Assembly: GCA_964487665.1 (NCBI GenBank)
Contig: CAZARR010000003.1
Span: 6,998 to 70,997 of the forward strand
Direction of reading: 5' to 3'
Length of the DNA stretch: 64,000 nt
Source: an uncultured Pseudomonadales bacterium
GTDB taxonomy: Bacteria > Patescibacteriota > Microgenomatia > UBA1400 > MFAQ01
Made by a program: the position numbers and the translations under genes. Positions within the stretch are counted from its first letter, which is position 1, and every line of letters starts with the position of its first letter. Of this stretch, positions 5,994 through 62,360 are shown in pieces. The notes beneath the pieces were generated by a model. The model saw only the letters and a program-made list of their open reading frames with translations, had not been told where the DNA came from and did not search any database.

Positions 5994-6866
5994 TTTAAAG
6001 ACTTTGTTCCAAACGGTAATAAGAGGAACGGCAACGAAAGGTGATGAGTAGGTGCCGGAGATGGTGCCTATGAGTAGGGCAATAGCAAAACCTCGAATAC
6101 TGTCTCCGCCGAGAACAACTAAGGCAATTAACATAAAGATAATCGTGAGTGAGTTGTTGATTGACCTGGTTAGAGTCTGGCTGACAGCAAGATTGGTTAG
6201 CTCGAGGAAGTCGGGGACTTTTTGTTTGTGAGACAGTTCACGGATACGATCGTAGACGACAATGGTATCGTGAACTGAAAATGAAAGGGTGGTAAGTACC
6301 GCGGTAACGAAGAGCAAATCGGTGGTAAGTCCAAAAAAGTGCCCCAAAAGGGAAAAGGAACCGATAAGTACAATACTATCGTGAAGCATGGCTAGAACGG
6401 CACTGAGGCCATATTTAAGCTCTTTGAACACGTATGCCACATAACCGAGAATCACTAGCGAAGCAAGTAACAGTCCCATGGCGGTCTTGCGAATCGTTTC
6501 CCGACCAAGGACTGGACCGACTGTTTCGAAACTTGAGAGTTTGGCAGCTGAATCAGTTTGAGAGAGTGCGGTTTTTATGTCGTTGGCCTGTTGTTGTGTT
6601 ATGGTCTTGAGTTCCAACTTGACAAGGTTACCTTTTTGAGTCAAATCGGTGACGGGATAATCTTTGAGAAGTTCTTTGGTCTTTTCGGGAAGTAGGGTGA
6701 CGCCTTCGACTACCAGGGTGGATCCCCCAGTAAACTCGATCGACAATTTTAAACCAAAACGTATCAGCGAATAGACGCCTGGAAGGATGACTATTAGTGA
6801 AATAAGTGCATAAATTGGTCTTAGTCGCATCCAGTTGAAGGTTTGGGGTTGTATTTGTTTGGACAT
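5982..6866 (-). CDS. secF: Protein-export membrane protein SecF
   Basis: SecF-like TM topology and sequence. Start MSKQ at 6866 sits just after the secD stop (6868-6870); they do not overlap. Confidence 0.8.
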   Translation of the reverse strand: MSKQIQPQTFNWMRLRPIYALISLIVILPGVYSLIRFGLKLSIEFTGGSTLVVEGVTLLPEKTKELLKDYPVTDLTQKGNLVKLELKTITQQQANDIKTALSQTDSAAKLSSFETVGPVLGRETIRKTAMGLLLASLVILGYVAYVFKELKYGLSAVLAMLHDSIVLIGSFSLLGHFFGLTTDLLFVTAVLTTLSFSVHDTIVVYDRIRELSHKQKVPDFLELTNLAVSQTLTRSINNSLTIIFMLIALVVLGGDSIRGFAIALLIGTISGTYSSPFVAVPLITVWNKVFKSLR

Positions 6867-6867
6867 T

Positions 6868-8235
6868 TTATTTGGTTGTCTTGGGCTGGCCTTTGTAAAA
6901 GACGCGTAGTAAATTGCGGGTAACAAAAATACCAGTAAATAACGAAACAATAATACCTAGAATCAGTGTGAAGGCAAAACCCCGAACCAAACCTGAGACA
7001 TTTAGAAACTCCCAGTTGAGTGGGTTAAAAAGAATAATTCCGGTCAAAATAGTTGTGGTGTTGGCATCACGAATTGAATCCCAGGCGCGACCGAAGGCAA
7101 GCTCTAAGGCCACTTGCCAGTTTCTATCGGATCGAATTTCCTCTTTGTAGCGTTCAAAGATAAGAATGTTGCTGTCTACGGCCATACCCACAGAGAGGAT
7201 AAATCCAGCGATACCAGGCAAACTGAGGGTAACGGGAATAAGCTTGTAGAGAGCTAGGGTAATAAGTCCGTAGATGACTAACCCAGCGCTGGCAATAACT
7301 CCAAGGCGCCCGTAAAGGACGGACATAAAAATTATTACGCTGGCAAGGCCTACGCCACCAGCAACAAGGCTTTTTTGCACTGATTCGACCCCCAAACTTG
7401 GAGGTATGTTTTTTTGCCCCTCTATGTTGATGGGTACCGGAAGAGCACCCGCATCGAGTTGAACCGCCAAAGATTTGGCCTCTTTGGTGGTAAACTTGCC
7501 AGTAATTTGGGCATTGCCATCGGCTATTTCGGTTTGGACAACGGGCATCGTAATGGGGTAACCATCAAGAAGAATGGCAATTGGTTTGTTGATATTTTCT
7601 TTGGTAAGTTTTGCGAACTTGTCTTTACCCGAATCCTGAAATGAAATTGCGACAGCTGGTGACCTGTCTTCTGTTTCGAAGCTAACTGAGGCCTTTTTTA
7701 AATCCGATCCAGTTAGGTCAGTCAGACTAAAACCAACAAATGTAGCCGCATCAGATGCGGTTTTGCCTGGCTTGTATTGAGGTAGAGCAAACTGCAATTT
7801 TGCTGTTTGACCTATAAGACTTATAGCTTGGGTGGGGTCTTCTACACCAGGCAACTCAACGATAAGTCGGTAGTTTCCGCCACTATTAAGCGTTTTGATA
7901 GAAGATTCGGCAACTCCATACAAATCGACCCGACGGGAGATCACTGAGCGGACAGACTCTAGGGCGGCCTCGCGGTCTGAGTTGTTAATTTTCGACATAT
8001 CAGCGGTTAGGGTAACCTGCATCCCCCCCAATAGGTCCAGTCCCCTTTTTATATCGAAGTCGCGTCTGAGCGAAAAGTTGCCAATTTTTAGATCCAATGA
8101 TGGCCGGGAGAGATCGACCTTGATATTTTTGTTAAATATGTTGGTTGAGAAAATATAGTCTTTGGGAACATCAATTACTAGGCAAAGGGCAGTGATGAGG
8201 ATAATAAGAATGAGATTTTTTTGCTGATCTTTCAT
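6868..8235 (-). CDS. secD: Protein-export membrane protein SecD
   Basis: SecD periplasmic domain followed by C-terminal 6-TM bundle; lies immediately upstream of secF. Confidence 0.85.
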   Translation of the reverse strand: MKDQQKNLILIILITALCLVIDVPKDYIFSTNIFNKNIKVDLSRPSLDLKIGNFSLRRDFDIKRGLDLLGGMQVTLTADMSKINNSDREAALESVRSVISRRVDLYGVAESSIKTLNSGGNYRLIVELPGVEDPTQAISLIGQTAKLQFALPQYKPGKTASDAATFVGFSLTDLTGSDLKKASVSFETEDRSPAVAISFQDSGKDKFAKLTKENINKPIAILLDGYPITMPVVQTEIADGNAQITGKFTTKEAKSLAVQLDAGALPVPINIEGQKNIPPSLGVESVQKSLVAGGVGLASVIIFMSVLYGRLGVIASAGLVIYGLITLALYKLIPVTLSLPGIAGFILSVGMAVDSNILIFERYKEEIRSDRNWQVALELAFGRAWDSIRDANTTTILTGIILFNPLNWEFLNVSGLVRGFAFTLILGIIVSLFTGIFVTRNLLRVFYKGQPKTTK

Positions 8236-8967
8236 CTATGTGAGAATTGTAACCCCTGAGTCTGTAACAAAGACAGTCTCTTCGAAAAGGGCGCTCAGTG
8301 AACCGTCTGCGGTTTCGATGGTCCATCCATCGTTCGATAGTTTTAGCTGTGACCCCCCCATGGTATACATGACCTCAATAGCGAGCGCCTGACCTGGATA
8401 AATGATGTCTTTCTGGGATTTTTTATCGGGGTAACAGGGGATGTTCGGCGGCTCGTGAAGAGAGTGACCAATACCGTGGCCAGTAAGGTCATAGACAACT
8501 TGGTACTGATGGAATGAAATGGTGTTGAATATGGCTAGACTAATGTCATAAACTGTGCCACCCGGCTTGGTAGCACGGATCGCATTGTCCAGAGCAATTT
8601 GGCCGGCTTTTAGGAAATGCTCCACCTTGGGCGTGTTCGGAGGTAGCTGAAACGATATGGATGTATCAAGATGATAATTCTGATACATCAATCCTAGGTC
8701 GATAGAGACAATGTCTGAAGGCTTGAGTGCTTTTTGATCAGGAAGGCCGTGAACGATACCCGCGTTGAGATTGATACAGGTAGCATGATGGTAATGAGGA
8801 ACTGTCTTGAACGAGGCTAGACAACCGTGTTTCGCGATCAGTTGTTCAGCTAACGCGTCAATTTGGGAGAGGGTGACCCCTACTTTGGCGGTCTGACAAA
8901 GCTCATCTCTGATTTGGTGGAGGATTTGACCTCCTTTTTGCATGATGGGAAATTTGGCTGATTTCAT
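8236..8967 (-). CDS. map: Methionine aminopeptidase type I
   Basis: Metal-binding signature TGHGIGHSLHEPP and pita-bread fold motifs. Start overlaps the adk stop as ATGA. Confidence 0.9.
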   Translation of the reverse strand: MKSAKFPIMQKGGQILHQIRDELCQTAKVGVTLSQIDALAEQLIAKHGCLASFKTVPHYHHATCINLNAGIVHGLPDQKALKPSDIVSIDLGLMYQNYHLDTSISFQLPPNTPKVEHFLKAGQIALDNAIRATKPGGTVYDISLAIFNTISFHQYQVVYDLTGHGIGHSLHEPPNIPCYPDKKSQKDIIYPGQALAIEVMYTMGGSQLKLSNDGWTIETADGSLSALFEETVFVTDSGVTILT

Positions 8968-16597: not shown

Positions 16598-17362
16598 TTA
16601 CCTAGATACTTTGTTACTTTTAATGATGTATTTGTTTGAGTACTTTTTGCGTTTACGAGTTTTTTTGCCCAGAGCTTTTTTACCCCATGGGGTTTTGGGG
16701 GCTTTCATACCTATTCCGGATCTACCTTCACCCCCTCCGTGTGGATGAGAACGAGGATCTTGAGCTACTCCTCGGACGGTAGGACGAACACCCATAAGGC
16801 GATGTCGGCCGGCACTGCCAATTTTTTCGTTTTTGTGGTCGGGGTTGGTTAGAGCACCAATGGTTGCCCGGCAGTCAGGGTTGATAAAGCGGAGAACACC
16901 GGAGGGTAATTTGATAATAATTTTGTCTTCCTCTTTTGACTGAACCAGTGCGAAGTTACCTGCTGAACGCGCGAGTTGGGCGCCCTTACCAGCCTTGATT
17001 TCTACACAATGAATTGGTGTGCCAACGGGAATATTTTTCAGTTGGCAACAGTTCCCAGGGCGAATTTCGGCAGCAGGAGAAGATATCAGCCAGTCCCCTT
17101 CTTTGACCCCTTGTGGGGCGAGAATGTATGTCTTGAGACCATTTTCGTAAACTAAAAGTGCAATATCGGCAGTGCGGTTTGGATCGTATTCGATACTTGC
17201 CACTCTGGCCTTGATATCGGTTACGTTTCTTTTCCAATCAATTTGGCGAAGGAATCGTTTTTGACGTCCACCTTGTCCGCGTACCGTTATTTTACCAGAA
17301 GAGTTTCGGCCAGAGGATTTTGGGTTGATTTTGAGTAGATTTTTTGGGATCGATGTGGACAT
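16598..17362 (-). CDS. rplB: 50S ribosomal protein L2
   Basis: PHGGGEGR signature; start MSTSIP at 17362, adjacent to the rplW stop. Confidence 0.9.
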   Translation of the reverse strand: MSTSIPKNLLKINPKSSGRNSSGKITVRGQGGRQKRFLRQIDWKRNVTDIKARVASIEYDPNRTADIALLVYENGLKTYILAPQGVKEGDWLISSPAAEIRPGNCCQLKNIPVGTPIHCVEIKAGKGAQLARSAGNFALVQSKEEDKIIIKLPSGVLRFINPDCRATIGALTNPDHKNEKIGSAGRHRLMGVRPTVRGVAQDPRSHPHGGGEGRSGIGMKAPKTPWGKKALGKKTRKRKKYSNKYIIKSNKVSR

Positions 17363-17363
17363 G

Positions 17364-17648
17364 TTATTTTTTGATGTTGAATAGTTCAATTGTTTGCTTG
17401 TCTTTGAGCTTGACTAGAGCTTTTTTTGAGGCTGGTAAGTTACGATACCGGCCAGTTCGGCGCTGGCGGACCTGACGCTTTGGGAGTCGTTGGGTTTTGA
17501 CATCGGTAACGTTGACCTTGAACAAGGACTCAACGGACTCTTTGATCTGATGTTTGGTGGCTGCGAGACGGACCACGAATGTGAAGACTCCTTTTTTTGC
17601 ATTGGCCAGGCTCTTTTCGGTAATTCGAGGTTTAATTACTGAGTTCAT
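17364..17648 (-). CDS. rplW: 50S ribosomal protein L23
   Basis: L23 sequence; order L4-L23-L2. Confidence 0.85.
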   Translation of the reverse strand: MNSVIKPRITEKSLANAKKGVFTFVVRLAATKHQIKESVESLFKVNVTDVKTQRLPKRQVRQRRTGRYRNLPASKKALVKLKDKQTIELFNIKK

Positions 17649-18301
17649 TTTTGTGCACTAATACTTTTGACCAATCTATTTTGGAGCTCTTCGAAAGCAC
17701 TTTGGGTAAAAATAACAGTGTCGGCTCGGAAGATTTGATAGGTATTGGCTCTAATAACGTTAACAAGGCTGGTCTTGGAAAGATTGCGAAATGAAAGTTG
17801 GAGGTCCTTTTTGTCGCGGGGCGAGAACAGGAGGTCGATTGAACGCCCTGACCGGCCGGTCTCTTTTAGAATTGCTTGGGCAGTCTTGGAGCTCGGTCTG
17901 GAAAAATGGGATGTGTCGAGAATGAAAAAGCGACTTTTTTCGGCCTTGTTTTTCATAGCCATACAAAGGGAAATAATACGCTGGTGTCGTGAAAGTTTAA
18001 GTGGCATGGGGCGGATGCCACTTGGCCCGTGGGCAACGCCGCCACCAACAAATATGGGGGCTTTACGCGAACCGTGCCGGGCGTTTCCTGTTCCCTTTTG
18101 TGCATATACTTTTCGAGTGGTGCCGACTATTTCACTGCGTCTTTTGGTTTTTTTTGTCTTTTGGTGTGAGTGGTCTTGGTAGTAGCGGATGGCCTGTGCG
18201 AAAGCCTTGGAAGAAAATTCGATAGCACAAATTTCTTTGGCAAGCTCCTGTTCTTTTTCTGTTGAGCTTTTGGGGATTATCGGGACAAAATATTTTTTCA
18301 T
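17645..18301 (-). CDS. rplD: 50S ribosomal protein L4
   Basis: QKGTGNARHGSRKAPIFVGGGVAHGP signature. Confidence 0.9.
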   Translation of the reverse strand: MKKYFVPIIPKSSTEKEQELAKEICAIEFSSKAFAQAIRYYQDHSHQKTKKTKRRSEIVGTTRKVYAQKGTGNARHGSRKAPIFVGGGVAHGPSGIRPMPLKLSRHQRIISLCMAMKNKAEKSRFFILDTSHFSRPSSKTAQAILKETGRSGRSIDLLFSPRDKKDLQLSFRNLSKTSLVNVIRANTYQIFRADTVIFTQSAFEELQNRLVKSISAQK

Positions 18302-18915
18302 TTACTTTGAGGAAGAGTTATCTTGGTAAGACTGTTACGACCGCCTGGTGTGGTTCCTTTAAGAACGAGTATGTTTTTTTCTTTGTCGAAATCTAGGATG
18401 GATAGCGTTTTGACTGTGGCAGTAGTATTTCCGAGGTGCCCTGCCATCTTTTTGCCTAAGACCACTCGCCCTGGGGTGGTTCTTCTCCCGAGAGACCCTG
18501 GGCCACGATGTCGGTCTGACTGACCGTGGGTTCGGGGCTGTGTAGCGAAACCCCAGCGTTTGATCCAACCACCAAACCCTTTGCCCTTGGAAGTAGCAGT
18601 AACTTTTACCAAAGTGTTGGGGGTTAGCAATAGAGAGATGTCGACTCCTGCAAGTTGTTCGGGGGTTGGGTTGGTTACTGTTGGTGACTGTTTAAAAATT
18701 CTGGGGGTGAAATCAAGTTTAAATTTGTTGATCAATCCTTGAATGGGTTTGCTGGCCTTTCTTTTTTTGGTACCGATGGCCAGTAAGACCGCTGACTCAC
18801 CGACGGGGACTATGGCCCGATGGGTGGGGACAATAAAGCAAGTGACAGGAACGCGACGTCCATCGACGAAACGTTGTTCCATGTGTGATTTGTAGGCGTA
18901 TATGTATTTGATCAT
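18298..18915 (-). CDS. rplC: 50S ribosomal protein L3
   Basis: L3 sequence (GKGFGGWIKRWGF ... QSDRHRGPGS). Confidence 0.9.
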   Translation of the reverse strand: MIKYIYAYKSHMEQRFVDGRRVPVTCFIVPTHRAIVPVGESAVLLAIGTKKRKASKPIQGLINKFKLDFTPRIFKQSPTVTNPTPEQLAGVDISLLLTPNTLVKVTATSKGKGFGGWIKRWGFATQPRTHGQSDRHRGPGSLGRRTTPGRVVLGKKMAGHLGNTTATVKTLSILDFDKEKNILVLKGTTPGGRNSLTKITLPQSK

Positions 18916-18949
18916 CGTCTTTGTGGCACCAGACTTTGGTAACCATAGG

Positions 18950-19267
18950 CTACATTTTTATTTGAATATCCACACCTGCGGGTAGATCGAGGTGCTGTAG
19001 AGAGTCAATAGTTTTGTTGGTCGGCATAATAATGTCGATAAGTCGACGATGGGTACGAATCTCAAAGTGTTCCCGAGCGTCTTTGTTTATATGAGGACTA
19101 GTCGTGACAACTATTGATTTTTTCTTGGTTGGCAGAGGAACCGGACCGACGACTTGAGCTCCGGAGACTAAAGCAGTTTGGATAATTTTGTTGGCTGTTT
19201 CGTCAATTACCCTATGATCAAACGACCGGAGCTTTATTCTAATTTTGGGAGTGTTGGTTCCGGCCAT
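18950..19267 (-). CDS. rpsJ: 30S ribosomal protein S10
   Basis: [15 protein letters not shown].. S10 signature. Confidence 0.9.
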
Positions 19268-19278
19268 ATGGTACCATT

Positions 19279-20454
19279 CTAGGCAAGAACCTTGGTAATT
19301 ACTCCCGAGCCGATGGTTTGCCCACCTTCGCGAATAGCAAAGCGCAAACCTTCTTCCATAGCTACTGGTTGAATTAGTTCAACGGTAAACTTGGCATTAT
19401 CACCAGGCATAATCATTTCTACTCCTTCGGGGAGGGTGACTGAACCAGTTACGTCGGTGGTACGAACGTAAAATTGGGGTTTGTAGCCACTAAACATGGG
19501 GGTGTGTCTACCACCCTCATCCTTGCCAAGAACGTATACTTCCGCCTCAAATTTGGTGTGAGGAGTAATGGTTCCAGGCTTGGCTAGAACTTGTCCACGC
19601 TCGACATCCTCTTTTTCAATTCCTCGCAATAGAAGGCCGGCGTTGTCTCCCGCCATTCCCTGGTCGAGTGATTGACGGAACATTTCGACACCAGTGACAA
19701 CGCTTTTTTTGGTGGGACGAAGACCAATTATTTCAATTTCTTCACCAACCTTAACGGTGCCACGCTCGATTCTGCCGGTAACAACAGTACCTCGACCTTT
19801 GATTGAAAACACATCCTCGATGGGCATAAGGAATGGTTTGTCGAGGTCTCGAATCGGATCGGGAATCCATGAGTCGACAGTATCCATTAGTTTCATGATC
19901 TGCTCTTGAGCAGCAGCATCACCCTCGAGAGCTTTGAGTGCGGAAACGCGAATGATTGGGGTGTTTTCTTCGTATTCAAACTTTTTGAGAAGTTCACGAA
20001 TCTCCATCTCGACTAGCTCGATGAGCTCTGGATCATCAACCATGTCAACCTTGTTTAGAGCGACAACGATTTTTGGAACATTAACTTGGCGGGCTAAGAG
20101 TAAGTGCTCTTTGGTCTGGGGCATAGGACCGTCTGTAGCCGCAATAACTAGAATGGCACCATCCATTTGGGCCGCACCAGTAATCATGTTCTTGATAAAG
20201 TCGGCGTGTCCTGGACAGTCGATGTGGGCATAGTGACGTTTTTCTGTTTCGTAGGGGACGTGGGTAATGTTGATGGTAACACCACGAGCTTTTTCTTCGG
20301 GGGAGGCATCAATTTGGTCATAAGCCATGGCTTGAGCCAGACCTTTTTTAGCTAGGGTTGCGGTAATAGCGGCTGTTAGAGTGGTTTTGCCATGGTCAAC
20401 GTGACCAATGGTACCAATGTTAACGTGAGGCTTTGTTCTTTGAAATGTAGCCAT
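19279..20454 (-). CDS. tuf: Elongation factor Tu
   Basis: [23 protein letters not shown]-motifs; 391 aa. Confidence 0.95.
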
Positions 20455-32039: not shown

Positions 32040-32435
32040 TCATTTTTTACTATCTAGGTATTCTTCGAGAATAATAGCAGCCGAATTGGCGTGGAGCGAA
32101 GATTTGTAATGGCGGGGACTGACGTTGGCCCGGGCCAATTCTGAACTTGCCTGGTGAGAGCTATTATCCTCAGAATAAAGGACAAACTTGATAGTGGGAA
32201 AGTTTGTACTCAGACTGCGATGAAGATTCTGAGAGAAGCGGACTATCGGTCCCGATCGAGGTTGCCCAATGACAACAATCTGTGGATGATACTGGGTGAT
32301 GATTGAATTAAGCGATACAACCAAATGTTTTAGAGACTTTGATTCAATAGTAGATAGGGGCAGAGCCAAAAGGTTTTGGTTGGCTATGGCGACACCAGTG
32401 TGTGAAAGGCCGGGGTCGAGGCAAAGTATCGTCAT
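32040..32435 (-). CDS. ruvX: Holliday-junction resolvase-like nuclease RuvX/YqgF
   Basis: N-terminal ILCLDPGLSHTGVAIA (YqgF RNase H-like motif); 131 aa. Confidence 0.8.
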   Translation of the reverse strand: MTILCLDPGLSHTGVAIANQNLLALPLSTIESKSLKHLVVSLNSIITQYHPQIVVIGQPRSGPIVRFSQNLHRSLSTNFPTIKFVLYSEDNSSHQASSELARANVSPRHYKSSLHANSAAIILEEYLDSKK

Positions 32436-33223
32436 ATGTTTCTGACTAGATCCGCCTCGACAATTAGGCGTTTGAGACGAGTTCCTGGCGGAACGCAGGT
32501 TATTAATTTCAATTTTTTGTGGTCGTAAATTTGTCGTAGTACCCAGGTGTCGCTTGGTTTGACTTGGTAAACTTTGGTCACTTTGTAGGTATAAGTGTTA
32601 TTGTTAAAATTTGTAAGAATAAGGTCGTCTAATTTTACGCTAGGGAGGTAAGTAAAGATGCTCATATAGTCATTCGGTTTGGTAAGCTGGGGAAGGGTCG
32701 AGTGTCCGAAAATAACTGTGTCGCCAAATCCCCCTGGGAGCGCAGTGCCAGGGAAGTGGACAAGACTTTTGCCCAGATCGTCGCCGTTGATTGTGACGAT
32801 TGCTAGATCAAGCTTGAGGCTAGGTACGCTAATGGTAAAGGTCTTGAGATCTGTGGGGGGAGGGTTGAGTTGTGAGATCGTAGTTGGTTCTGAAGGAGGA
32901 ATGTTTTTGGCGGCAAACCAGTTACTGGCCTTGGTAAAGTCGAGGTCGGAAACCACCTGAGGGCCGTTTTCGGTATCAAGTGAGGGGAATGATGACGCAT
33001 CGACGATTGGTGAAAGAAGTCCAACGCGGGCATATCGATCGGTTGTGGGTGAGTTGGATCTGTCAGTGAACTGATACTCGACGATCGGCCAAGTCACACT
33101 GGCAATAATTGCTAAGCCAAGAGCAGAAATTATTATAGGTAGTAACTTTAGATAAAGCGGGAGAATGTGTCCAGGATAAGGATTTTCTGGTGTGGCTTTT
33201 TGATATGCGTACGGTTCATACAT
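32432..33223 (-). CDS. Sortase-family transpeptidase (N-terminal TM anchor)
   Basis: Catalytic His in VIFGHSTLPQ, TLxTC-type Cys in KLITCVPPGT, conserved Arg in RLIVEADLVR. Confidence 0.8.
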   Translation of the reverse strand: MYEPYAYQKATPENPYPGHILPLYLKLLPIIISALGLAIIASVTWPIVEYQFTDRSNSPTTDRYARVGLLSPIVDASSFPSLDTENGPQVVSDLDFTKASNWFAAKNIPPSEPTTISQLNPPPTDLKTFTISVPSLKLDLAIVTINGDDLGKSLVHFPGTALPGGFGDTVIFGHSTLPQLTKPNDYMSIFTYLPSVKLDDLILTNFNNNTYTYKVTKVYQVKPSDTWVLRQIYDHKKLKLITCVPPGTRLKRLIVEADLVRNI

Positions 33224-35333
33224 TGGTTTGGTTAGAAACTATTATGATTTTTATCCTAGCGGGGTTTCTGGGGAGATATTGATTGAGAATTGGTAGACTG
33301 GGGGTAATTTTTACAACGATTGACGAAACTCCGCTGGTGTTGTCGAATAGGGAAGGAATTTTGCTTACCGATTTCCCGGCGAGAACCGAGGGATATTGGG
33401 CAACATTAATATCCGGAACTAATTGCCCTTGGACGGCGGCTGAGGCTGTGTAGCTGTCATTGGTGATCTTTTTTATATCGTTTAATACGATAGTAGTTGA
33501 GGTCGGATCAAGTTTTTTTTGACTGTATTTGCCAGACACAATTTGTTTGGTTAAGTTGTTTATCAAATTCTCTGGGGAATAAACCAAGACTGGTACAGAA
33601 GCGGATAAGTTGAGAGAAAGTTCGTCTGACGCCTCGGATATTTTGGCAGAAAACTTTTTGGTGGTAATCTTGATATCTCCCGAGACACTTTTTGACTCGT
33701 TGTCATTTGAGGTAGATTCGCTATTTACTTTGGTGCTGACCTCTGCGAGCGCTTGTTCTTCGAGAGACTTGATGTCTCTATCAGAAACAGCTTTGACTGT
33801 TTTTGAAGATCCGCCGGAGAAATCCTTGTCGCAAATGGCAATTAGTGTGCTTTTTGGATATTTATCGACAGAAAATTGGGTGTCTTTGGGGAGGTTGCTC
33901 TCTGCGCCAATTTTGAGAGCGCTTACGGTAATTGCTGAACTACCAGGAGTGATAACAAAGGGTGGTTCAGGCTGGGAGGAGCTTGAGGCAATAAAAACTG
34001 AGTCGTCTAGGCTGAAGTCCTGGCCATTGCTGGCAGTAACTTTTGTTCCTGCTTTAAGTGCTATCAATTGACTTGAACGGTTGTAGATTGTGATCGTGCC
34101 CTTGGCTTTGTCGCCAACTACGGTTTCTCCCGTGGTGCTTATCTTTTTTTCCACATTTACGGTTAGAGTTTCTTCGCGAAGAATAGCTGAGCCGGCCTGA
34201 TCTTTGGAGAGATTAACAGTGACTGTTTGTTCGAGACTTTCTGGTTTGGTCTTGATGGTAATTTCTGCCCGAACAAGAGATTGGTAGAAAAGGAATAGAA
34301 TAGCAGGAATTATTGGCACGCCAATAAGGAAAAAATATTTAAGTGAAAGTTGAGGAAGACGAAGCCTAGGAAGAGACAGGCTAGGAATAAGCCTATGTTT
34401 AAGTGATGTTTGGGGTTCGGGTTGGTGAATAACAAGAGGTGTTGGAGGCAAAGGAGGTGTGGAATCGATTTCCGGCGATTTATTTTCCGATTCGACTTCG
34501 AACCCAAGGTCTTTGAGGGTTGCCTCGTTTACCGGAGTGACATCAGAAGAGGCGATTGTGCCATCTTCTGTTGTTGGGGTAGTGACAACATCTAGCCCAA
34601 GAGATTTGGCAGCTTCAGTGCCACCACATAGGGCAATAGCCTTGATGGAAAAATCACTATCAAGAACTTCAACCTTGGGAAGATGTAAAAAGTTGAGTTT
34701 TTCTAACCATGGATAAGAGATAATCTGTTGGCGTTCATTGTCTAAGTTGGAACCATTTGTCAAGATGAAACGGACAGGGAGGCGGTCGGCTCCAATGCGA
34801 ACCAGGGCCTCTTCTACGTCCTTGGCCAGGTCATCGGAACGACCCACCTCTTCTTGTCTTTCCACCTGTCCAACCCTAATTAGCGATACTACGGCTCGGG
34901 TGGGGTAAATTTCAATAAGAATAGCAGTGGGAGGAATACCATCCTGTTTTTTGAGCTGCTGGACAATAGCTTCGGTGATCGTTACCAAGCCAATGGGCTT
35001 GAGGTTAAGATCGTTGATAATCTTTTTGATCTGTGAACTGTAGTCAGTGGAAATTTTGTCACCATCGAGCCAAGACTCGGGTAGTCCAAGGATAACCCGG
35101 TCTGGTTCGCTGCCTAAGGTCTTGACTGCGTTGGTAAGTGAAATGTCTACACCATTGACCAAGGACTCGCTATCTTCCCAGGCTTCGTATGAACCGACAG
35201 CGATAATTTCCGGCTGGTTGTCTACAACTTTCCAAGAAGCTGTTTTTACTAAAGAGTCATGAATTTCTAGAGCTAAGAAAAACTCCTCGGTCTGAGTGGG
35301 GCTGTCTTTTTTAAATAGGCGTTTTATCTCCAT
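33216..35333 (-). CDS. Hypothetical bitopic membrane protein. N-terminal cytoplasmic domain has weak actin-like (FtsA/PilM/GspL-cyto-like) resemblance; single TM; Ser/Thr-rich beta-rich extracytoplasmic C-terminal domain
   Basis: 705 aa. Degenerate phosphate-1-like LALEIHDSLVK. TM YFFLIGVPIIPAILFLFYQSLV at about residue 335. No LPXTG. The domain assignment is tentative. Confidence 0.35.
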   Translation of the reverse strand: MEIKRLFKKDSPTQTEEFFLALEIHDSLVKTASWKVVDNQPEIIAVGSYEAWEDSESLVNGVDISLTNAVKTLGSEPDRVILGLPESWLDGDKISTDYSSQIKKIINDLNLKPIGLVTITEAIVQQLKKQDGIPPTAILIEIYPTRAVVSLIRVGQVERQEEVGRSDDLAKDVEEALVRIGADRLPVRFILTNGSNLDNERQQIISYPWLEKLNFLHLPKVEVLDSDFSIKAIALCGGTEAAKSLGLDVVTTPTTEDGTIASSDVTPVNEATLKDLGFEVESENKSPEIDSTPPLPPTPLVIHQPEPQTSLKHRLIPSLSLPRLRLPQLSLKYFFLIGVPIIPAILFLFYQSLVRAEITIKTKPESLEQTVTVNLSKDQAGSAILREETLTVNVEKKISTTGETVVGDKAKGTITIYNRSSQLIALKAGTKVTASNGQDFSLDDSVFIASSSSQPEPPFVITPGSSAITVSALKIGAESNLPKDTQFSVDKYPKSTLIAICDKDFSGGSSKTVKAVSDRDIKSLEEQALAEVSTKVNSESTSNDNESKSVSGDIKITTKKFSAKISEASDELSLNLSASVPVLVYSPENLINNLTKQIVSGKYSQKKLDPTSTTIVLNDIKKITNDSYTASAAVQGQLVPDINVAQYPSVLAGKSVSKIPSLFDNTSGVSSIVVKITPSLPILNQYLPRNPARIKIIIVSNQTNV

Positions 35334-54315: not shown

Positions 54316-55698
54316 ATGAAACCAAAGAGTTGGGGGGTTTGGCTACCACTCGTGTTGGGAAGCGTGATAATAGTGTTACTGGGAGTGATAATTCCTCGCA
54401 GGGTAAGATATTCTTCCCGCGCTCGGGACGTGGCAGCAAATCTGACCATTGATCTTTCGGGGCATCTTGGCAAACAACCTAAACTGTGGGCTGATTTGGC
54501 TCAGGGGGGAGAAGAAAACAAACCAATGTTGGGTCCGGCCATTGACAAAATAAGCGATTTGTCGCCCGGATATATTCGACTTGATCATATCTATGACTTT
54601 TTTAATGTGGTTAAGGTTGAGGGAGGCCAGGTTCAATTTAACTGGAGCGGGTTGGACCGAGCAGTTGGTGAGATAACAATGACGGGAGCTAAGCCTATGC
54701 TGGTGTTGTCATATATGCCACTATCGATATCTTCCGGCTCGATTACCGATCCTCCAAGAAATTGGAGTGATTGGCAAAATCTCGTTCGAGCGACCATAGA
54801 GCATTATAGTGGTCGGGGGAACAAGGCTATAGGGGGGGTAATTTACGAGGTTTGGAACGAACCGGATCTGTTTGGCAGCTTCAAAACTTATGGACCGAGG
54901 AATTATCTGACGATGTACCAATATGCGGCTCAGGGGGCGATGCAGGCACGTGACGTGTTGCACTTTGAAATTGGTGGGCCAGCGATAACTAACTATTATG
55001 CAAACTGGATCGAAAGGTTGATTAATTACGCTGATGAGAATAAATTACGTCTAGATTTTGTTAGTTGGCATCGATATTCATTGGACGTAGATAGTTTTGC
55101 CATAGATATAGACAAGGCGAGACAGTTGGCAGAGAGAATTCCGGCTCTGGTTAATTTAAAGTTCTATTTGACTGAGTGGGGACACAATAGCGCTAACGAT
55201 AGCGGTTATGACACTACTTTTGGAGCTATTCATAACATGGCGGTATATCAGTCGATTGTTGGTAAGGTCGATCGGGCTTTTTCATTCGAAATAAAAGATG
55301 GTCCTGGAAGCTCAAAGTACTGGGGCAGGTGGGGAATGTTGACACACGAAAATTTTGGGGTGGATGAAAAGCCGCGGTATAAGGCACTTAGATTTTTAAA
55401 TAATCTGTATCAATTCCGACTAGGGGCTGTTGGTCAGGGAACTTTTGTGCGGGCTCTGGCTACGACAAATGAAGCCGGGGATGTCAGATTACTTTTGACT
55501 AATTTTGACACAGAAGGGAGACACTTTGAGTCCGTGCCCATTTTGTTTGACAATTTGCCCAAGAGGGAATTTAGCTACAAGCGAATAGATTTTTTGGGGG
55601 GGAGTAATACTGTTAGAGTGGCTACATCCGAGGCGGTTTTTGCGTCTAGAGAGGGGATTGGACCAAATAGTGCAGCAATAATCGAGCTGGATTTTTAG
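54316..55698 (+). CDS. Membrane-anchored glycoside hydrolase, clan GH-A (GH39/GH5-like TIM barrel)
   Basis: N-terminal TM WGVWLPLVLGSVIIVLLGVII; acid/base motif IYEVWNEPD; nucleophile motif YLTEWGH; 460 aa. Confidence 0.6.
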   Translation: MKPKSWGVWLPLVLGSVIIVLLGVIIPRRVRYSSRARDVAANLTIDLSGHLGKQPKLWADLAQGGEENKPMLGPAIDKISDLSPGYIRLDHIYDFFNVVKVEGGQVQFNWSGLDRAVGEITMTGAKPMLVLSYMPLSISSGSITDPPRNWSDWQNLVRATIEHYSGRGNKAIGGVIYEVWNEPDLFGSFKTYGPRNYLTMYQYAAQGAMQARDVLHFEIGGPAITNYYANWIERLINYADENKLRLDFVSWHRYSLDVDSFAIDIDKARQLAERIPALVNLKFYLTEWGHNSANDSGYDTTFGAIHNMAVYQSIVGKVDRAFSFEIKDGPGSSKYWGRWGMLTHENFGVDEKPRYKALRFLNNLYQFRLGAVGQGTFVRALATTNEAGDVRLLLTNFDTEGRHFESVPILFDNLPKREFSYKRIDFLGGSNTVRVATSEAVFASREGIGPNSAAIIELDF

Positions 55699-57480: not shown

Positions 57481-59127
57481 TTAGTTTTGGGTTTGGGTAT
57501 CAATGACATCGCTGCTTGAGGATAGAATTTGGCGCCAGTTGCCCAGACGTTTTATTAGAGCCAAAGCATCGCGTAATTCTTCAATTTTGAAAATAAAACA
57601 AACCAGTACATATACCCCAACGCCAATGATGCTGACAATGGTAGTAAGGAGGATAAGAGGTAGGGTGTGGGTAGTGTCAAAAACAAAACGGTCAAGCAGA
57701 CGCATGGGAATCCATAGACAAATTCCGGTGGTAAGGCCAGCGGCCAGGTATTTTAAAAGCCGTTTTTCCAAGACTAGCGAGCCGGTTTTTTTGAGAATGA
57801 AATAGTAAAGGAGTAAAAAATCAATCGAGTTCGAAATAGTTAAAGCAAGACTAAGGCCTGGTAACCCAAGATGGAGAATAGTAACCAAAACGAACCCAAG
57901 TAAAGTAAATAGGGTGATGGTGATGAGGCTGATTAGTAGGGGGGTTTTGGTATCTTTGTGGGCGTAAAAGGCACGGACTAGAATGTGAGTAGTCGCCTGG
58001 GGGGCAATCGAAAGAGAAAGTAGAGCAAGCGTTTTGCCAGTCAAAAGGGTTGCCTCCCAAGGAAAGTTGTCGGCGCCGAAGGAGAGCCGGACCAAAGGAA
58101 TACGAAGAATTAGAACTAAAACCGAGGCAGGAATGGCAAAGAATAGGGTTTGTAACAACGATTTGCGAAGGGTTTGACGAAAAGCCTGTTGGTCAGAAAG
58201 AGCGGCCTCTTTTGACAAACTGGGAAAAGAGGCCTGGCCGAGAGCAACCCCAAAAAGACTTATCGGTAGTAAGTACAGCTGTCGGGCAAAGGTAAACATT
58301 GCCAGAGAACCACTAACCAAGAGGGAGCTAAGGTTGGTGGCAATAAAACGTTCGAATTGAGCGACTCCCAAGGCAGCGCTTCGCGCAGGCATCAAACGAA
58401 ACATGCTAACTACACCACGGTGTCGGAACGAAAATGACAATTTGGGAGTAAAACCCAAAGAGACGGCTGTGGGCAATTGAATGAGAAAATGCAGGATTGA
58501 ACCAATGACCATGCCAATGGCTGCAGAGTAGATACCAAAACGTGATGAGAGAGTAATGATACCAATGATGGTGCCCAGGTTATATAGAACCGGAGCCAAA
58601 GCTGGCAGCAAAAAACGGCGGTGGGCCTGAAGAACGCCGGTAAGAAAAGCGGAGATAGTAAAAAAGATTTGGGAAATGGCCATTATTCTCATCAGATCGG
58701 CTAACAAAAGGGTCTGTTGCACTCCGAAGTGGGTAATAAGTTGGGCCAGTGGTACTGCAAAAATAATTACCAATAGGGTAAAGAGAGCAAGAAGTAAGCC
58801 AAGCATGGTCATGGCGGTATTGGTTAGGTGGTTAGCCTCTTTTTCAGAAACTTTGAGGTAGTCCTGATAGATTGGCATAAAGGCCGCGGATAGAGAACCG
58901 ACAATTAGCAGCTGAAAAATGCCATCAGGAATAACCGAGGCGGCAAAATAGACATCAAGAGAACCTTCGTTGCCACCGAAGAACTGACCGGCCAGCAGGC
59001 GGTTGCGAATTACACCGAGTAGGGCCGAAAGTAGATAAGAGATGGCAATAATTGCGGCTGCCGAGAGAATATTTTTGTTTTCGCCATTTAATAGATGGCG
59101 CGAACGTTTGAGTATCGATTGGACCAT
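57481..59127 (-). CDS. murJ: Lipid II flippase MurJ/MviN
   Basis: 14-TM MOP-superfamily pattern with a MurJ N-terminal signature; 548 aa. Confidence 0.8.
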   Translation of the reverse strand: MVQSILKRSRHLLNGENKNILSAAAIIAISYLLSALLGVIRNRLLAGQFFGGNEGSLDVYFAASVIPDGIFQLLIVGSLSAAFMPIYQDYLKVSEKEANHLTNTAMTMLGLLLALFTLLVIIFAVPLAQLITHFGVQQTLLLADLMRIMAISQIFFTISAFLTGVLQAHRRFLLPALAPVLYNLGTIIGIITLSSRFGIYSAAIGMVIGSILHFLIQLPTAVSLGFTPKLSFSFRHRGVVSMFRLMPARSAALGVAQFERFIATNLSSLLVSGSLAMFTFARQLYLLPISLFGVALGQASFPSLSKEAALSDQQAFRQTLRKSLLQTLFFAIPASVLVLILRIPLVRLSFGADNFPWEATLLTGKTLALLSLSIAPQATTHILVRAFYAHKDTKTPLLISLITITLFTLLGFVLVTILHLGLPGLSLALTISNSIDFLLLYYFILKKTGSLVLEKRLLKYLAAGLTTGICLWIPMRLLDRFVFDTTHTLPLILLTTIVSIIGVGVYVLVCFIFKIEELRDALALIKRLGNWRQILSSSSDVIDTQTQN

Positions 59128-59166
59128 AGACTGGTTGATTATAAAGTGAAATGCTATAGTTTAAAT

Positions 59167-60855
59167 ATGCACGAAACTTCGATGGTGTTTGCGAAAGCGA
59201 TATTGGTTGTTATTCCCCTCTTGTTGATTGCAATAACGGTGGTGGGGGCCAAAATGGTTCTTAATACCAATCGATCCTTTGATGAGAGAAGTAGGGCGTA
59301 CAGTCCCGATGCCAAGACCGGAAGAGGCGGTGAAACAGGTGAAATTCCCACTGGTATCGTAATCAGCAAGACTGTTTGCCCCGACCCTACTGTTCCGCTG
59401 CCGGGGTGTGATTACTATGGTGGAGATGGAATAGCCCAAGCAATTTCGGGATTTAATCAGCCGGGGAATACATTATTGGTTAGGCTAAGAAGTACTGCAA
59501 TAAATTCATCGAGTGAGTATTGGCCTACGCAGGAAATGACTGTGAGAAATAATAATATTCTGGTATCTGGTGAGGGCAACAGGAAACCGGTGATTGTTGT
59601 TAACAATGTTCGGGGGGCTCATTATTTAACCGCGGGGGTGGGATCGTCTTTGAGGCTGAACAATATACGCATTGAGGGAGGAATGAATAACAAGTCAAGT
59701 TTGCTAAGGGTGGAAAACGCTGGAAAATTGGAGTTAGTTAGCAGTGAGATAGCCAATACAAAAATTGGTGTTCTTGGAATCGAGGGAACTGTCAGGTTGA
59801 CCGATAACCTTTTTCAGGGTAATAACATGGCGGTACAGATTCAGTATTTCGATAGGGTGCAACACAATTCGCTGTTAAGAAATAATGTCTTTCTGAGTAA
59901 CGGAGGGGGTCTACGGGCTGGTTGTTATTATGCAAACACAGATGATTTATCTGTCCAAAATAACGTATTTTTTACCAACTCTAGCGTAAGCAGCCCCCAG
60001 CTTTCTCTACATGTTGGGTCTGAACCATGTCGCTCATTATCGGTAAACAATAATATATTTAAGGGGACGCAAAATATCGGAAATGGCTTATTTATCGAGT
60101 TTTCGAATCCTAACCCCGTGCCAACTGTCCTGGGAGCAATTAAATATAATAATGCTTTTGGGTTTCAATCCAACTTTTTACTTAATGGATCGGGGTCGGG
60201 CCAAATGGATCCTACAAATATTTCAGTAAACCCCAAGTTTGTGGGGGAACCGAGTAATTTCAGGTTGGCGGCCAACTCTCCACTTATTAATGCTGGAAAT
60301 CCCGAGCAGATGTATTTGGACACGGATGGAAGTAGAAATGATATGGGGGTTTATGGCGGGCCATTTGGAAGTTATTTTGGTAATTGGGGATCGCCAGCGA
60401 CCTGCAACCTTTGTGACTTGGATGATGACAACTTGGTAGAGGGAGGTAATGCGACTCCGCGAGGAGATGACATAAACCGGGTGATTGCCTGTCTGGGACA
60501 GCGTGTTGCCACCAATCCAAGTTGTGCAAAGGCAGATTTTACGGCTGATGGATTGCTGATAAACTCAGGCGACGTGACCAGTTTTGTTGGCTTGTGCAAT
60601 GGGATGCAGGGACGCAGTTGTTCGAGTGCTATTTGTAGCGCCCCAAATATCCCCGGACAGAGAGCGGACACTGACTTGAATAAAGATTATGTTGTTAACA
60701 ACATAGATGTGGCGATATTTGATAATAGTCTTTGCTCAGGAATAGCTAGCTTATCTGGCCAGGTTTGGAAGTATTGCCGGATGTTTGACATAAATGGCGA
60801 TTACCAGGTGGACCAGGTTGATAGGCAAATGGTTAGTAGTTGTGTTGGACAATAG
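59167..60855 (+). CDS. Secreted/anchored right-handed beta-helix (PbH1 repeat) protein with four C-terminal Cys-containing dockerin-like calcium-binding repeats
   Basis: Start MHETSMVFAKAILVVIPLLLIAI (signal/anchor). PbH1-like repeats NNVFLSNGGG, NNVFFTNSS, NNNIFKGTQN. The C-terminal 147 aa (60412-60852) carry the repeats DLDDDNLVEGG..IACLG, DFTADGLLINSGDVTSFVGLCNG, DLNKDYVVNNIDVAIFDNSLCSG, DINGDYQVDQVDRQMVSSCVGQ. Confidence 0.6.
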   Translation: MHETSMVFAKAILVVIPLLLIAITVVGAKMVLNTNRSFDERSRAYSPDAKTGRGGETGEIPTGIVISKTVCPDPTVPLPGCDYYGGDGIAQAISGFNQPGNTLLVRLRSTAINSSSEYWPTQEMTVRNNNILVSGEGNRKPVIVVNNVRGAHYLTAGVGSSLRLNNIRIEGGMNNKSSLLRVENAGKLELVSSEIANTKIGVLGIEGTVRLTDNLFQGNNMAVQIQYFDRVQHNSLLRNNVFLSNGGGLRAGCYYANTDDLSVQNNVFFTNSSVSSPQLSLHVGSEPCRSLSVNNNIFKGTQNIGNGLFIEFSNPNPVPTVLGAIKYNNAFGFQSNFLLNGSGSGQMDPTNISVNPKFVGEPSNFRLAANSPLINAGNPEQMYLDTDGSRNDMGVYGGPFGSYFGNWGSPATCNLCDLDDDNLVEGGNATPRGDDINRVIACLGQRVATNPSCAKADFTADGLLINSGDVTSFVGLCNGMQGRSCSSAICSAPNIPGQRADTDLNKDYVVNNIDVAIFDNSLCSGIASLSGQVWKYCRMFDINGDYQVDQVDRQMVSSCVGQ

Positions 60856-60876: not shown

Positions 60877-61122
60877 ATGCCAGTACTAAAACACGCAAAA
60901 AAGAAGCTTCGCGCAGACATCAAGAAACAGGTAGCCAACCGGACAGTAAGAACGCGGGCGGTAAGTGCTTTGGACAAGGCCAAAAAGACAAAGGAGGCCG
61001 TGGACATGTCCGAGGCATTTCGCAGGCTAGACAGGGCAGCCAAGACCGGTGTCTTTCACAAGGGAAAGGTCGACCGTCTCAAATCTAGGCTGGCCAAACT
61101 TTTCTTGACTCTGAAGAAATAA
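60877..61122 (+). CDS. rpsT: 30S ribosomal protein S20
   Basis: MPVLKHAKKKLRADIKKQVANRTVRTRA.. S20 signature. Confidence 0.85.
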   Translation: MPVLKHAKKKLRADIKKQVANRTVRTRAVSALDKAKKTKEAVDMSEAFRRLDRAAKTGVFHKGKVDRLKSRLAKLFLTLKK

Positions 61123-61149: not shown

Positions 61150-61713
61150 ATGTCTGCCCAGCGGAAGATTGTTGGTATTGATTTGCTTCCTGGAAACTCG
61201 TTTGAGAAGAGCGATCTGGGTTTGGTATTGAATTGGATCAAGATATCGGGTAGAACGATAATTGTATTGACGGAGTTTGCGGTTATTTTGGCCTTTGGTT
61301 CGCGGTTTTGGTTTGACAAAACACTTAATGACCTGAAGGAGACGGTGGATCAAAAACAAAGCGTGGTGCGAAGCTACGAAAGTGTCGAGACAAAGATGCG
61401 GGATACACTGGCTCGCGAAGCCGTGGTCAGTGGATCGTTGGGAGGTAGTGCCCGAATAAATATACTGGTCGAGGATCTGGTGGTAGCAACACCAATTGAC
61501 GTTTTTTTTGAGAATATCTCTTGTATTGGTTCTTTGGTGGCTATCCGAGGAAGAGCCGGATCTGAGCTAGGACTTTCGGGTTTATTGGCGAACTTGACCA
61601 AAAACCCTAAGGTGGGCCAAGTATCGTTAAGCGAAATTAAATATTCCCAGACGGACAAACAACTTAGTTTTGGAGTAAGTTTTGAATACACAAACGAAGG
61701 GGGTAAAAAATGA
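61150..61713 (+). CDS. Type IV pilus assembly protein PilN-like
   Basis: N-terminal IVGIDLLPGN (INLLP-like PilM-binding motif); TM IIVLTEFAVILAFG; periplasmic domain; 187 aa. Confidence 0.6.
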   Translation: MSAQRKIVGIDLLPGNSFEKSDLGLVLNWIKISGRTIIVLTEFAVILAFGSRFWFDKTLNDLKETVDQKQSVVRSYESVETKMRDTLAREAVVSGSLGGSARINILVEDLVVATPIDVFFENISCIGSLVAIRGRAGSELGLSGLLANLTKNPKVGQVSLSEIKYSQTDKQLSFGVSFEYTNEGGKK

Positions 61714-62360
61714 TAATAAATCGAGCCGGTTATGATGCTTATTACCAAAGGATAAGAGATTTGTATCAACAGCCCGTAGTGTCTGTATCAGTTGAGGTGA
61801 TTCTGAATATTTTCGTAGTGGCCTTTTTGGTAACGTTTGTGATCAGGCCTACTTTTGGGGTAGTAGCTAGCCTAAAAAAACAAACTGAAGACCAAAGGAT
61901 CGTAGACACAAAGTTGACAAGTAAAATCAATTCCCTTAATCAGGCCCGGGGTACATTAGCGGAACAAGCAGCATTTTTGCCGCTATATACATCTGCAGTC
62001 AGCAAAGAATCGGACTTGGACGGGTTGGTTCTTCGGATCGAAAAATTGGCGTCTGAATATCAGATCCAGCTTACGGGGCTAAAATTGGGGGGGGTAGCTT
62101 TATTGGGAGACGATCTGGAGCTGGACAAAGGTAAGGGGGTAAGGAAAGTATCTACAGAAAAGGCAAATGAAGTATCTATGTCATTTACTGTAGAGGGGAG
62201 TTTTGCAAGACTAACCCCCTTTTTGTCTGATATGCAAAAGATGGATAGGCTGGTTAAGGTAGATGGGGTAAGCTTTAGTAAAGACAAAAAAAGTAAAACG
62301 GGGTTGGTGGCCATGTCTGGAACAGCACATGTTTACTATATGCCTAGCAAATCATTGTGA
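61710..62360 (+). CDS. Type IV pilus assembly protein PilO-like
   Basis: TM ILNIFVVAFLVTFVI, coiled-coil, C-terminal ferredoxin-like domain; 216 aa; 4-nt overlap with the upstream gene. Confidence 0.55.
   Translation: MIINRAGYDAYYQRIRDLYQQPVVSVSVEVILNIFVVAFLVTFVIRPTFGVVASLKKQTEDQRIVDTKLTSKINSLNQARGTLAEQAAFLPLYTSAVSKESDLDGLVLRIEKLASEYQIQLTGLKLGGVALLGDDLELDKGKGVRKVSTEKANEVSMSFTVEGSFARLTPFLSDMQKMDRLVKVDGVSFSKDKKSKTGLVAMSGTAHVYYMPSKSL

Follow-up and report, generated by a model that had tools for sequence, protein, structure and literature searches.

A beta-helix protein with a predicted cysteine-rich double dockerin in an uncultured bacterium

Dockerins in and outside cellulosomes

Type I dockerins (PF00404), such as those of C. 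thermocellum CelS (1DAQ) and Xyn10B (1OHZ), are duplicated F-hands: secreted proteins carry at their C-terminus two copies of a 12-residue loop (D-x-N-x-D-...-D), each with a helix following it. The same arrangement is found in the tail of a 562-aa protein encoded on contig CAZARR010000003.1, within a stretch of 64,000 nucleotides (positions 6,998 to 70,997 of the forward strand; "the window" below means this whole stretch, and all coordinates refer to it unless another contig is named). The protein consists of an N-terminal hydrophobic helix, a linker of ~30 residues, a parallel beta-helix of about ten coils with caps, and two tandem dockerins (Table 1). Judged from its sequence, the four repeats of the tail constitute two dockerin modules in a row, i.e., a double dockerin, and no novel four-repeat domain. 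We consider it rather probable that the protein is exported and presents the beta-helix as a surface head, which would be docked in a calcium-dependent manner via the disulfide-braced double dockerin; the docking partner, the calcium binding, and the disulfides are what we infer here. Each part is of a known kind, as precedents exist for the beta-helix, the dockerin, the double dockerin, and the Cys-bearing dockerin. The protein is therefore a mildly unusual member of known families, and neither a new system nor a new class of system.

Several differences to type I dockerins are apparent. The canonical dockerins compared here contain no cysteines, whereas the tail has ten, and the two loops of its first module carry insertions of seven and one residues. 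Moreover, no cohesin or cellulosome context was found in the neighborhood searched (see below), and the host seems to be an uncultured, reduced bacterium instead of one of the cellulolytic clostridia.

Tandem dockerins are rare. They occur in ScaK and the DocDoc protein of A. cellulolyticus (PMC4217186), and section 3.2 of PMC12484212 describes double dockerins of C. thermocellum, one of which, dDoc_0689 of Clo1313_0689, has been solved (PDB 8X39; Chen et al., 2024). These known double dockerins are cellulosomal and either sit on an S8 protease or stand alone, whereas the one described here follows a beta-helix. They are stabilized without cysteines, by a hydrophobic interface and a non-covalent clasp.

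Dockerin-like modules outside cellulosomes have long been recognized (Peer et al., 2009, as cited in PMC2930009). One case is SEML1_0315 of the cultured Patescibacterium Southlakia epibionticum, an envelope protein that has a dockerin domain and is reported to be essential, and for which targeting of host glycans was speculated (PMC10633639). By its description it resembles our protein in being dockerin-bearing, envelope-associated, and encoded by a reduced, host-attached bacterium without a cellulosome, provided that the host group proposed below for our protein is correct. A curated variant of dockerins is the GC-type dockerin (NCBIfam NF041540). P0097, a remote homolog of our beta-helix core, scores 37.3 bits with this model (cutoff 29) and shares with our protein a Cys before the first loop, a C-x-G after the last helix, and the location of the dockerin C-terminal to an anchored beta-helix. 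In P0097, however, the insertions precede the D-G of the loop, whereas those of our protein follow loop position 10, and neither the whole protein nor either of its modules matched NF041540 at E up to 10.

The cysteine-rich tail

The tail comprises the C-terminal 158 residues (aa 405–562) and contains four Asp-rich loop-helix repeats (R1 to R4), each with a Cys-x-Gly near the end of its helix. Loop starts of the form D-x-[DNT]-x-D are located at residues 417, 457, 503, and 541, a number reached in one of 5000 shuffled sequences, and the four C-x-G motifs (C442, C477, C523, and C559) were equaled in 54 of 5000. R3 (503–514) and R4 (541–552) have canonical 12-residue loops, D-x-N-x-D-x-x-x-[ND]-x-x-D. 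The R2 loop (457–469) has a T at position 3 plus a one-residue insertion, and in the R1 loop (417–435) seven residues, GNATPRG, are inserted between loop positions 10 and 11. In all four loops, positions 1, 3, 5, 9, and 12 are occupied by D, E, N, or T. The four Cys-punctuated calcium-type repeats described in the initial annotation are thus real, but its 13-residue consensus, taken literally, fits none of them. Likewise, it was right in counting four repeats instead of the canonical two, but not in regarding this architecture as non-standard, since two tandem modules suffice to explain it and double dockerins are documented (PDB 8X39).

Assignment of the second module is straightforward. Pfam Dockerin_1 (PF00404) matched aa 502–557 with 23.3 bits in the context of the whole protein and 26.8 bits when the module was searched alone (gathering score 22.9), which bears out the dockerin likeness proposed earlier and answers the first part of the Pfam search suggested at that time. 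In addition, both halves of the module are covered when canonical dockerins are aligned to it (aa 499–562; alignment A3).

Module 1, with its loop insertions and an 'ACLG...PSC' staple signature, is the only element that escapes the curated models. Its relationship to dockerins is indicated by more remote comparisons. In two MAFFT alignments (A6 and A10), 13 dockerin sequences are colinear with aa 415–480 and place the putative ligands of R1 and R2 at loop positions 1, 3, 5, 9, and 12. Exhaustive phmmer searches linked the module to the protein P0106 by repeated matches with a whole-library E-value of 1.8e-10, and P0106 itself matches Dockerin_1 (E 1.4e-13) as well as PG_binding_1. A profile that includes module 1, and is dominated by bona fide dockerin rows, recovers PDB dockerins at E 2e-13; phmmer with either module alone gave no significant match in the PDB. 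AlphaFold predicts helices after the loops of module 1. The two modules are adjacent on one polypeptide with ~20 residues between them, and each is aligned in full by canonical dockerins, module 1 over aa 409–480 in A10 and module 2 in A3. When both were included in one MAFFT alignment, the dockerin rows fell entirely on one module or were split chimerically (A3, A5, A7, A8, and A9); the structure model of the tail was computed with A10, which is clean over module 1 only.

Asp-rich calcium loops with disulfides are also the hallmark of thrombospondin (TSP) type 3 repeats, and the dockerin profile additionally recovers calmodulin EF-hands at about E 1e-6. The tail could thus be read as a TSP type 3-like or generic EF-hand array, or even as Asp/Asn-rich low complexity. 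A match to TSP type 3 repeats had been named in the initial annotation as an outcome that would speak against dockerins, and such a match was looked for: even with E-values up to 10 allowed, no TSP_3, TSP3_bac, or EF-hand model of Pfam matched, whereas the score of Dockerin_1 lies above the gathering threshold. Furthermore, a predicted amphipathic helix follows each loop, as in F-hands, and low complexity is ruled out by the shuffle tests, which together with the E-value of the match to P0106 exclude chance. We therefore regard these readings as extremely improbable.

Cysteines are concentrated in the tail, which contains ten (413, 416, 442, 453, 477, 485, 490, 523, 537, and 559) as opposed to four in the other 404 residues. 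The Cys of the C-x-G motif lies 7, 8, 9, and 7 residues after loop position 12 in R1 to R4, respectively, and hence near the helix end but in no fixed register. A further Cys is found exactly four residues ahead of the loops of R1, R2, and R4 (C413, C453, and C537). These residues might form intramodule disulfides of two kinds. A "linker staple" would connect the end of the first helix to the residue four positions before the next loop (C442–C453 and, with an x13 spacing, C523–C537). A "terminal clasp" would join the N-terminal flank to the C-x-G after the second helix (C413–C477, and either C485 or C490 with C559). The clasp is proposed because P0097 carries only these two elements, in the form of a Cys that precedes loop 1 by four residues and of S-C-W-G at the terminus, and non-covalent N-to-C "intramolecular clasps" are a known feature of dockerins (PMC3821032). 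The conserved Cys per repeat emphasized in the initial annotation was thus found, but Cys-bearing dockerins had already been curated (NF041540, as matched by P0097).

The C442-x10-C453 spacing is identical to that of every Cys pair in P0106 and in a similar protein encoded on the metagenomic contig L002. Module 1 and both of these proteins also share the signature helix-'AC(L/F)G'-x7-'(T/S/N)P(S/L)C'-x-'KADFxxDG' and an insertion of 6–7 residues at the same loop position as in R1. Both proteins, which are uncharacterized, differ from ours in having an Ig-like domain (in P0106 a sub-threshold Big_7 match) and no beta-helix, and in that the helices of their canonical F-hands lack C-x-G. PG_binding_1 domains are present at both ends of P0106 according to Pfam; the L002 protein resembles P0106 in this respect by sequence inspection only. 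P0106 and the L002 open reading frame (ORF; 4936–8772 of that contig, +) are large and contain F-hands in arrays, in which canonical ones alternate with the insertion type and the cysteines are paired. L002 was one of only two loci recovered in the metagenome search, the other (L003) encoding a generic dockerin. In word-indexed protein searches, the full protein recovered only itself and one relative of 87% identity and the 158-aa tail recovered no match, and a search with the tail alignment yielded four generic TSP3/dockerin proteins, all without the Cys pattern.

Conceivably, the Cys-stapled F-hand with loop insertion is a distinct, cohesin-independent and disulfide-locked attachment module common to our protein, P0106, and the L002 protein. 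We regard this as quite unlikely. If it were true, uncultured, reduced bacteria of Patescibacteria-like type might use the module to attach glycan-binding beta-helix heads, as well as peptidoglycan-binding proteins, either to the wall of their own cells or to a host cell, and the two modules of our protein might recognize two different partners. In any case, module 1 could justify a new sub-family model.

The beta-helix head and the putative role of the protein

The N-terminus was predicted to be a signal or anchor sequence, and this agrees with a mean Kyte–Doolittle hydropathy of 2.3–2.7 at residues 8–31 (19-residue windows) and with a helix modeled by AlphaFold at aa 3–43. It contains no lipobox Cys; a candidate signal peptidase I site, VGA|K, is found at aa 26–29. 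The helix would direct the protein through the Sec pathway and might afterwards be cleaved or be kept as an anchor.

Modeling with AlphaFold2, run with 20 remote-homolog sequences, yielded stacked three-strand coils for aa 62–397 at a pLDDT of 70–90. When the core was compared with the PDB by Foldseek, the top matches were all right-handed beta-helix proteins of 10–16% identity, namely the PL6 alginate lyase 7dmk (E 4e-6), the PL9 enzyme Pel9A (1ru4), RbmB, NosD, AlgG/AlgE, and phage tailspikes. The parallel beta-helix recognized in the initial annotation is thus corroborated by the modeled core and by polysaccharide lyases as best matches. Five copies of N-x-[VILA]-F are located at aa 239, 265, 295, 306, and 328 (five were reached in one of 5000 shuffles), and an Asn ladder, 'NNxF', lies in the turns. 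The N-terminal cap has the motif TVCPx9GCDYYGGDGIxQA with Cys71 and Cys81, and in the form TVCPx..GCD[YF][IY]GGxGIxQA it is common to our protein, its 87% relative P0002, P0085, P0122, P0123, and a protein on contig L075.

In the target itself no Pfam or NCBIfam model was assigned to the core; the second part of the Pfam search suggested earlier was thus negative, as Beta_helix (PF13229, or TIGR03804) and the CAZy-type families did not match. Exhaustive phmmer searches recovered 1331 remote homologs at E<=1e-3, and in the best 150 of these nearly all top-scoring matches lie within aa 200–405. Many relatives match Pfam Beta_helix, NosD, DUF5123, DUF1565, or the TIGR03804 parallel-beta-helix repeats; P0085, P0097, P0123, and P0151 match the Beta_helix or TIGR03804 models. 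The most conserved stretch among the remote homologs is the C-terminal cap (C-cap), with invariant L367, S371, G377, P379, D387, G388, G394, G397, and G398. NCBIfam choice_anch_Q (NF041518) gave 14.9 bits (E 0.024) at aa 363–387, below its cutoff of 25 bits.

A first search of genome contigs found no close relative. A second search, with a sub-family alignment, detected the beta-helix and C-cap in many phyla, and among the matches listed only the one on L075 (Dojkabacteria) covered the query nearly end to end (aa 9–339). The L075 protein has the same N-terminal anchor, N-cap, beta-helix, and C-cap, but different C-terminal modules; head and tail are therefore separable modules. Its gene runs off the contig end, with a frame-1 translation of more than 1000 aa, and the beta-helix is followed by Thr/Pro linkers, Cys-rich repeats, and a C-terminal membrane helix.

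As the working part of the protein, the head would bind, and possibly cleave, a polysaccharide. Catalysis is possible but unsupported. A polysaccharide lyase or hydrolase docked in the manner of a cellulosomal subunit would be in line with the PL6 alginate lyases, the PL9 pectate lyase, and the RbmB lyase among the best structural matches, with a membrane-anchored GH39-like glycosidase 3.5 kb away, and with the order of signal, head, and C-terminal dockerin, as classically found in cellulosomal enzymes. With PL6 7DMK, PL9 1RU4, RbmB, NosD, and AlgG/AlgE our protein has in common its fold and its Asn-ladder repeat as well as a predicted extracellular location. The similarity to PL6 and PL9 is at the level of the fold only (E 4e-6, 14–16% identity), however, and lyase identities of 10–16% at modest Foldseek E-values are not accompanied by any match to a CAZy-type Pfam family or other family HMM, nor were catalytic residues identified. 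In alignments of relatives no Lys/Arg/Asp cluster is conserved on the helix face, the invariant columns being those of the caps and the Asn ladder, and non-enzymes such as NosD are among the structural matches. The helix also evolves fast (see below). A catalytic head thus appears rather doubtful.

Comparison of the gene with that of its 87%-identical relative, a single sequence pair, gave dN/dS values of 0.41 for the beta-helix, 0.17 for the C-cap, 0.07 for module 1, and 0.12 for module 2, with dS being similar between regions and lower in module 2 (0.14–0.24). All ten tail cysteines and all loop ligands are unchanged in the relative. This suggests that a constrained docking tail is joined to a faster-evolving head, the pattern expected of a surface recognition protein.

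According to the reading that we favor, the tail would bind up to four Ca2+ outside the cell and thereby fold, and the folded tail would dock the beta-helix head onto a protein partner, which might reside on the envelope of the producing cell or on a different cell. A role at the surface in carbohydrate activity or attachment, as proposed in the initial annotation, is consistent with the evidence. Several observations weigh against docking by a double dockerin. Module 1 matched no curated dockerin model (including Dockerin_1 at E up to 10), and its structure model is partly circular, the rows of its alignment being dockerins. Module 2 was modeled at low confidence (pLDDT < 50) since no rows of the alignment covered it, and Foldseek found no match for the tail model. 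BLASTP detected no similarity between the two modules, which therefore did not arise by recent duplication. The insertions in the loops of R1 and R2 may abolish calcium binding, and the map of disulfides rests on pairing that we infer from sequence. For the head, no conserved charged cluster or active site emerged from the alignments of relatives, and the dN/dS contrast comes from one pair. Finally, a cohesin (PF00963) was found neither among the window ORFs scanned with Pfam, as had been noted before, nor among the neighbors of the gene in a relative's contig (L001).

This last result raises the alternative that the tail acts without cohesin, either by binding glycans of the cell wall or of a host or as a stalk stabilized by calcium and disulfides, in which case a small bacterium dependent on a host would use the protein as an adhesin. 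Module 1 has its closest relatives in proteins with peptidoglycan-binding domains and not in cellulosome components, the essential dockerin protein of S. epibionticum offers a parallel with a speculated host-glycan target (PMC10633639), and the sortase and the missing L30 between S5 and L15 (see below) would suit a monoderm with a reduced genome. On the other hand, 64 kb without a cohesin tell little about the genome as a whole, and a specific protein partner would account at least equally well for the strong purifying selection seen in the tail. To our knowledge, every functionally characterized dockerin binds a cohesin. We thus consider a cohesin-independent tail unlikely. If calcium-dependent docking is correct, the protein adds another case of dockerins outside cellulosomes, in this instance double and cysteine-braced on a surface beta-helix protein, and it is a candidate for studying how uncultured bacteria attach proteins, or themselves, to surfaces.

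Gene, neighborhood, and host

Table 1. Features of the beta-helix/dockerin gene and of other genes in the window.
Feature	Residues	Nucleotides	Strand	Basis or remarks
CDS, 562-aa protein		59167..60855, stop codon included	+	ORF list; P0001 and P0002 matches; synteny in L001
N-terminal hydrophobic helix, signal peptide or signal anchor	8-31	59188..59259	+	hydropathy; AlphaFold
Right-handed parallel beta-helix core	62-404	59350..60378	+	AlphaFold, Foldseek, remote homologs
Beta-helix C-terminal cap, NPKFV...FRLAANSPLINAGNP...DTDGSRNDMGVYGGP	353-404	60223..60378	+	conservation among remote homologs
Dockerin-like module 1	409-480	60391..60606	+	R1, linker with Cys453, and R2
Loop-helix R1	417-444	60415-60498	+	putative Ca ligands D417, D419, D421, E425, D435
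Loop-helix R2	457-479	60535-60603	+	putative Ca ligands D457, T459, D461, N466, D469
Dockerin module 2	485-562	60619..60852	+	Pfam PF00404 Dockerin_1; aligned canonical dockerins
Loop-helix R3	503-525	60673-60741	+	putative ligands D503, N505, D507, N511, D514
Loop-helix R4	541-561	60787-60849	+	putative ligands D541, N543, D545, D549, D552
GH39-like glycosidase, membrane-anchored		54316-55698	+	Pfam Glyco_hydro_39, E 6e-27; N-terminal hydrophobic segment
murJ		57481-59127	-	divergent from the beta-helix/dockerin gene
rpsT (ribosomal protein S20)		60877-61122	+	22 nt after the stop codon of the dockerin gene
pilN and pilO		61150-62360		follow rpsT
Sortase		32435-33223	-	overlaps the following gene by a few bases
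705-aa protein		33219-35333	-	weak Baseplate_J, E 0.002
Ribosomal proteins S5 and L15		10814-11741	-	abutting (overlapping ORFs)

The gene lies in an ORF of the window list spanning 59095–60855 (+), and the feature is real and situated where the initial annotation had placed it; position 60412, from which the repeat region was counted, falls on codon 416, immediately ahead of the first loop. Translation from 59167 (MHETS...) gives the 562 residues, and the same start was called for P0002, the full-length relative (87% identical) from a JGI metagenome. The NCBI product P0001 begins five codons later, at 59182, and is 100% identical over aa 6–562. The ATG at 59095 was rejected as start because the gene would then overlap the divergent murJ.

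Both neighbors to which attention had been drawn earlier, murJ in divergent orientation and a membrane-anchored glycosidase nearby, were recovered. The gene itself lies between murJ and rpsT, and the order hrcA, GH39-like gene, lepA, murJ, target, rpsT, pilN, and pilO is the same in L001. No terminator is evident between the dockerin gene and rpsT. The co-orientation of surface, ribosomal, and pilus genes is odd and is kept in L001.

The proposed host group derives from other parts of the window and from the relatives. Between the abutting genes of S5 and L15 there is none for L30, as is common in genomes of the Candidate Phyla Radiation. Together with the sortase gene and with the closest full-length relative being from Dojkabacteria, this might fit a monoderm, reduced, Patescibacteria-like bacterium. 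No Pfam family could be assigned with confidence to the 705-aa protein encoded next to the sortase. It has a membrane helix in its center and is rich in Ser and Thr in the C-terminal half, and it may be a sortase-associated surface protein.

Just past the right end of the window in the relative, L001 encodes a 974-aa protein (17226–20150 of that contig, +) with two domains of the thrombospondin type 1 family (TSP_1, E 8e-12), unusual for a bacterial protein. It is preceded by a 779-aa protein without family and by a Pur_ac_phosph_N/Big_13 protein, the start of which is in the window (62650).

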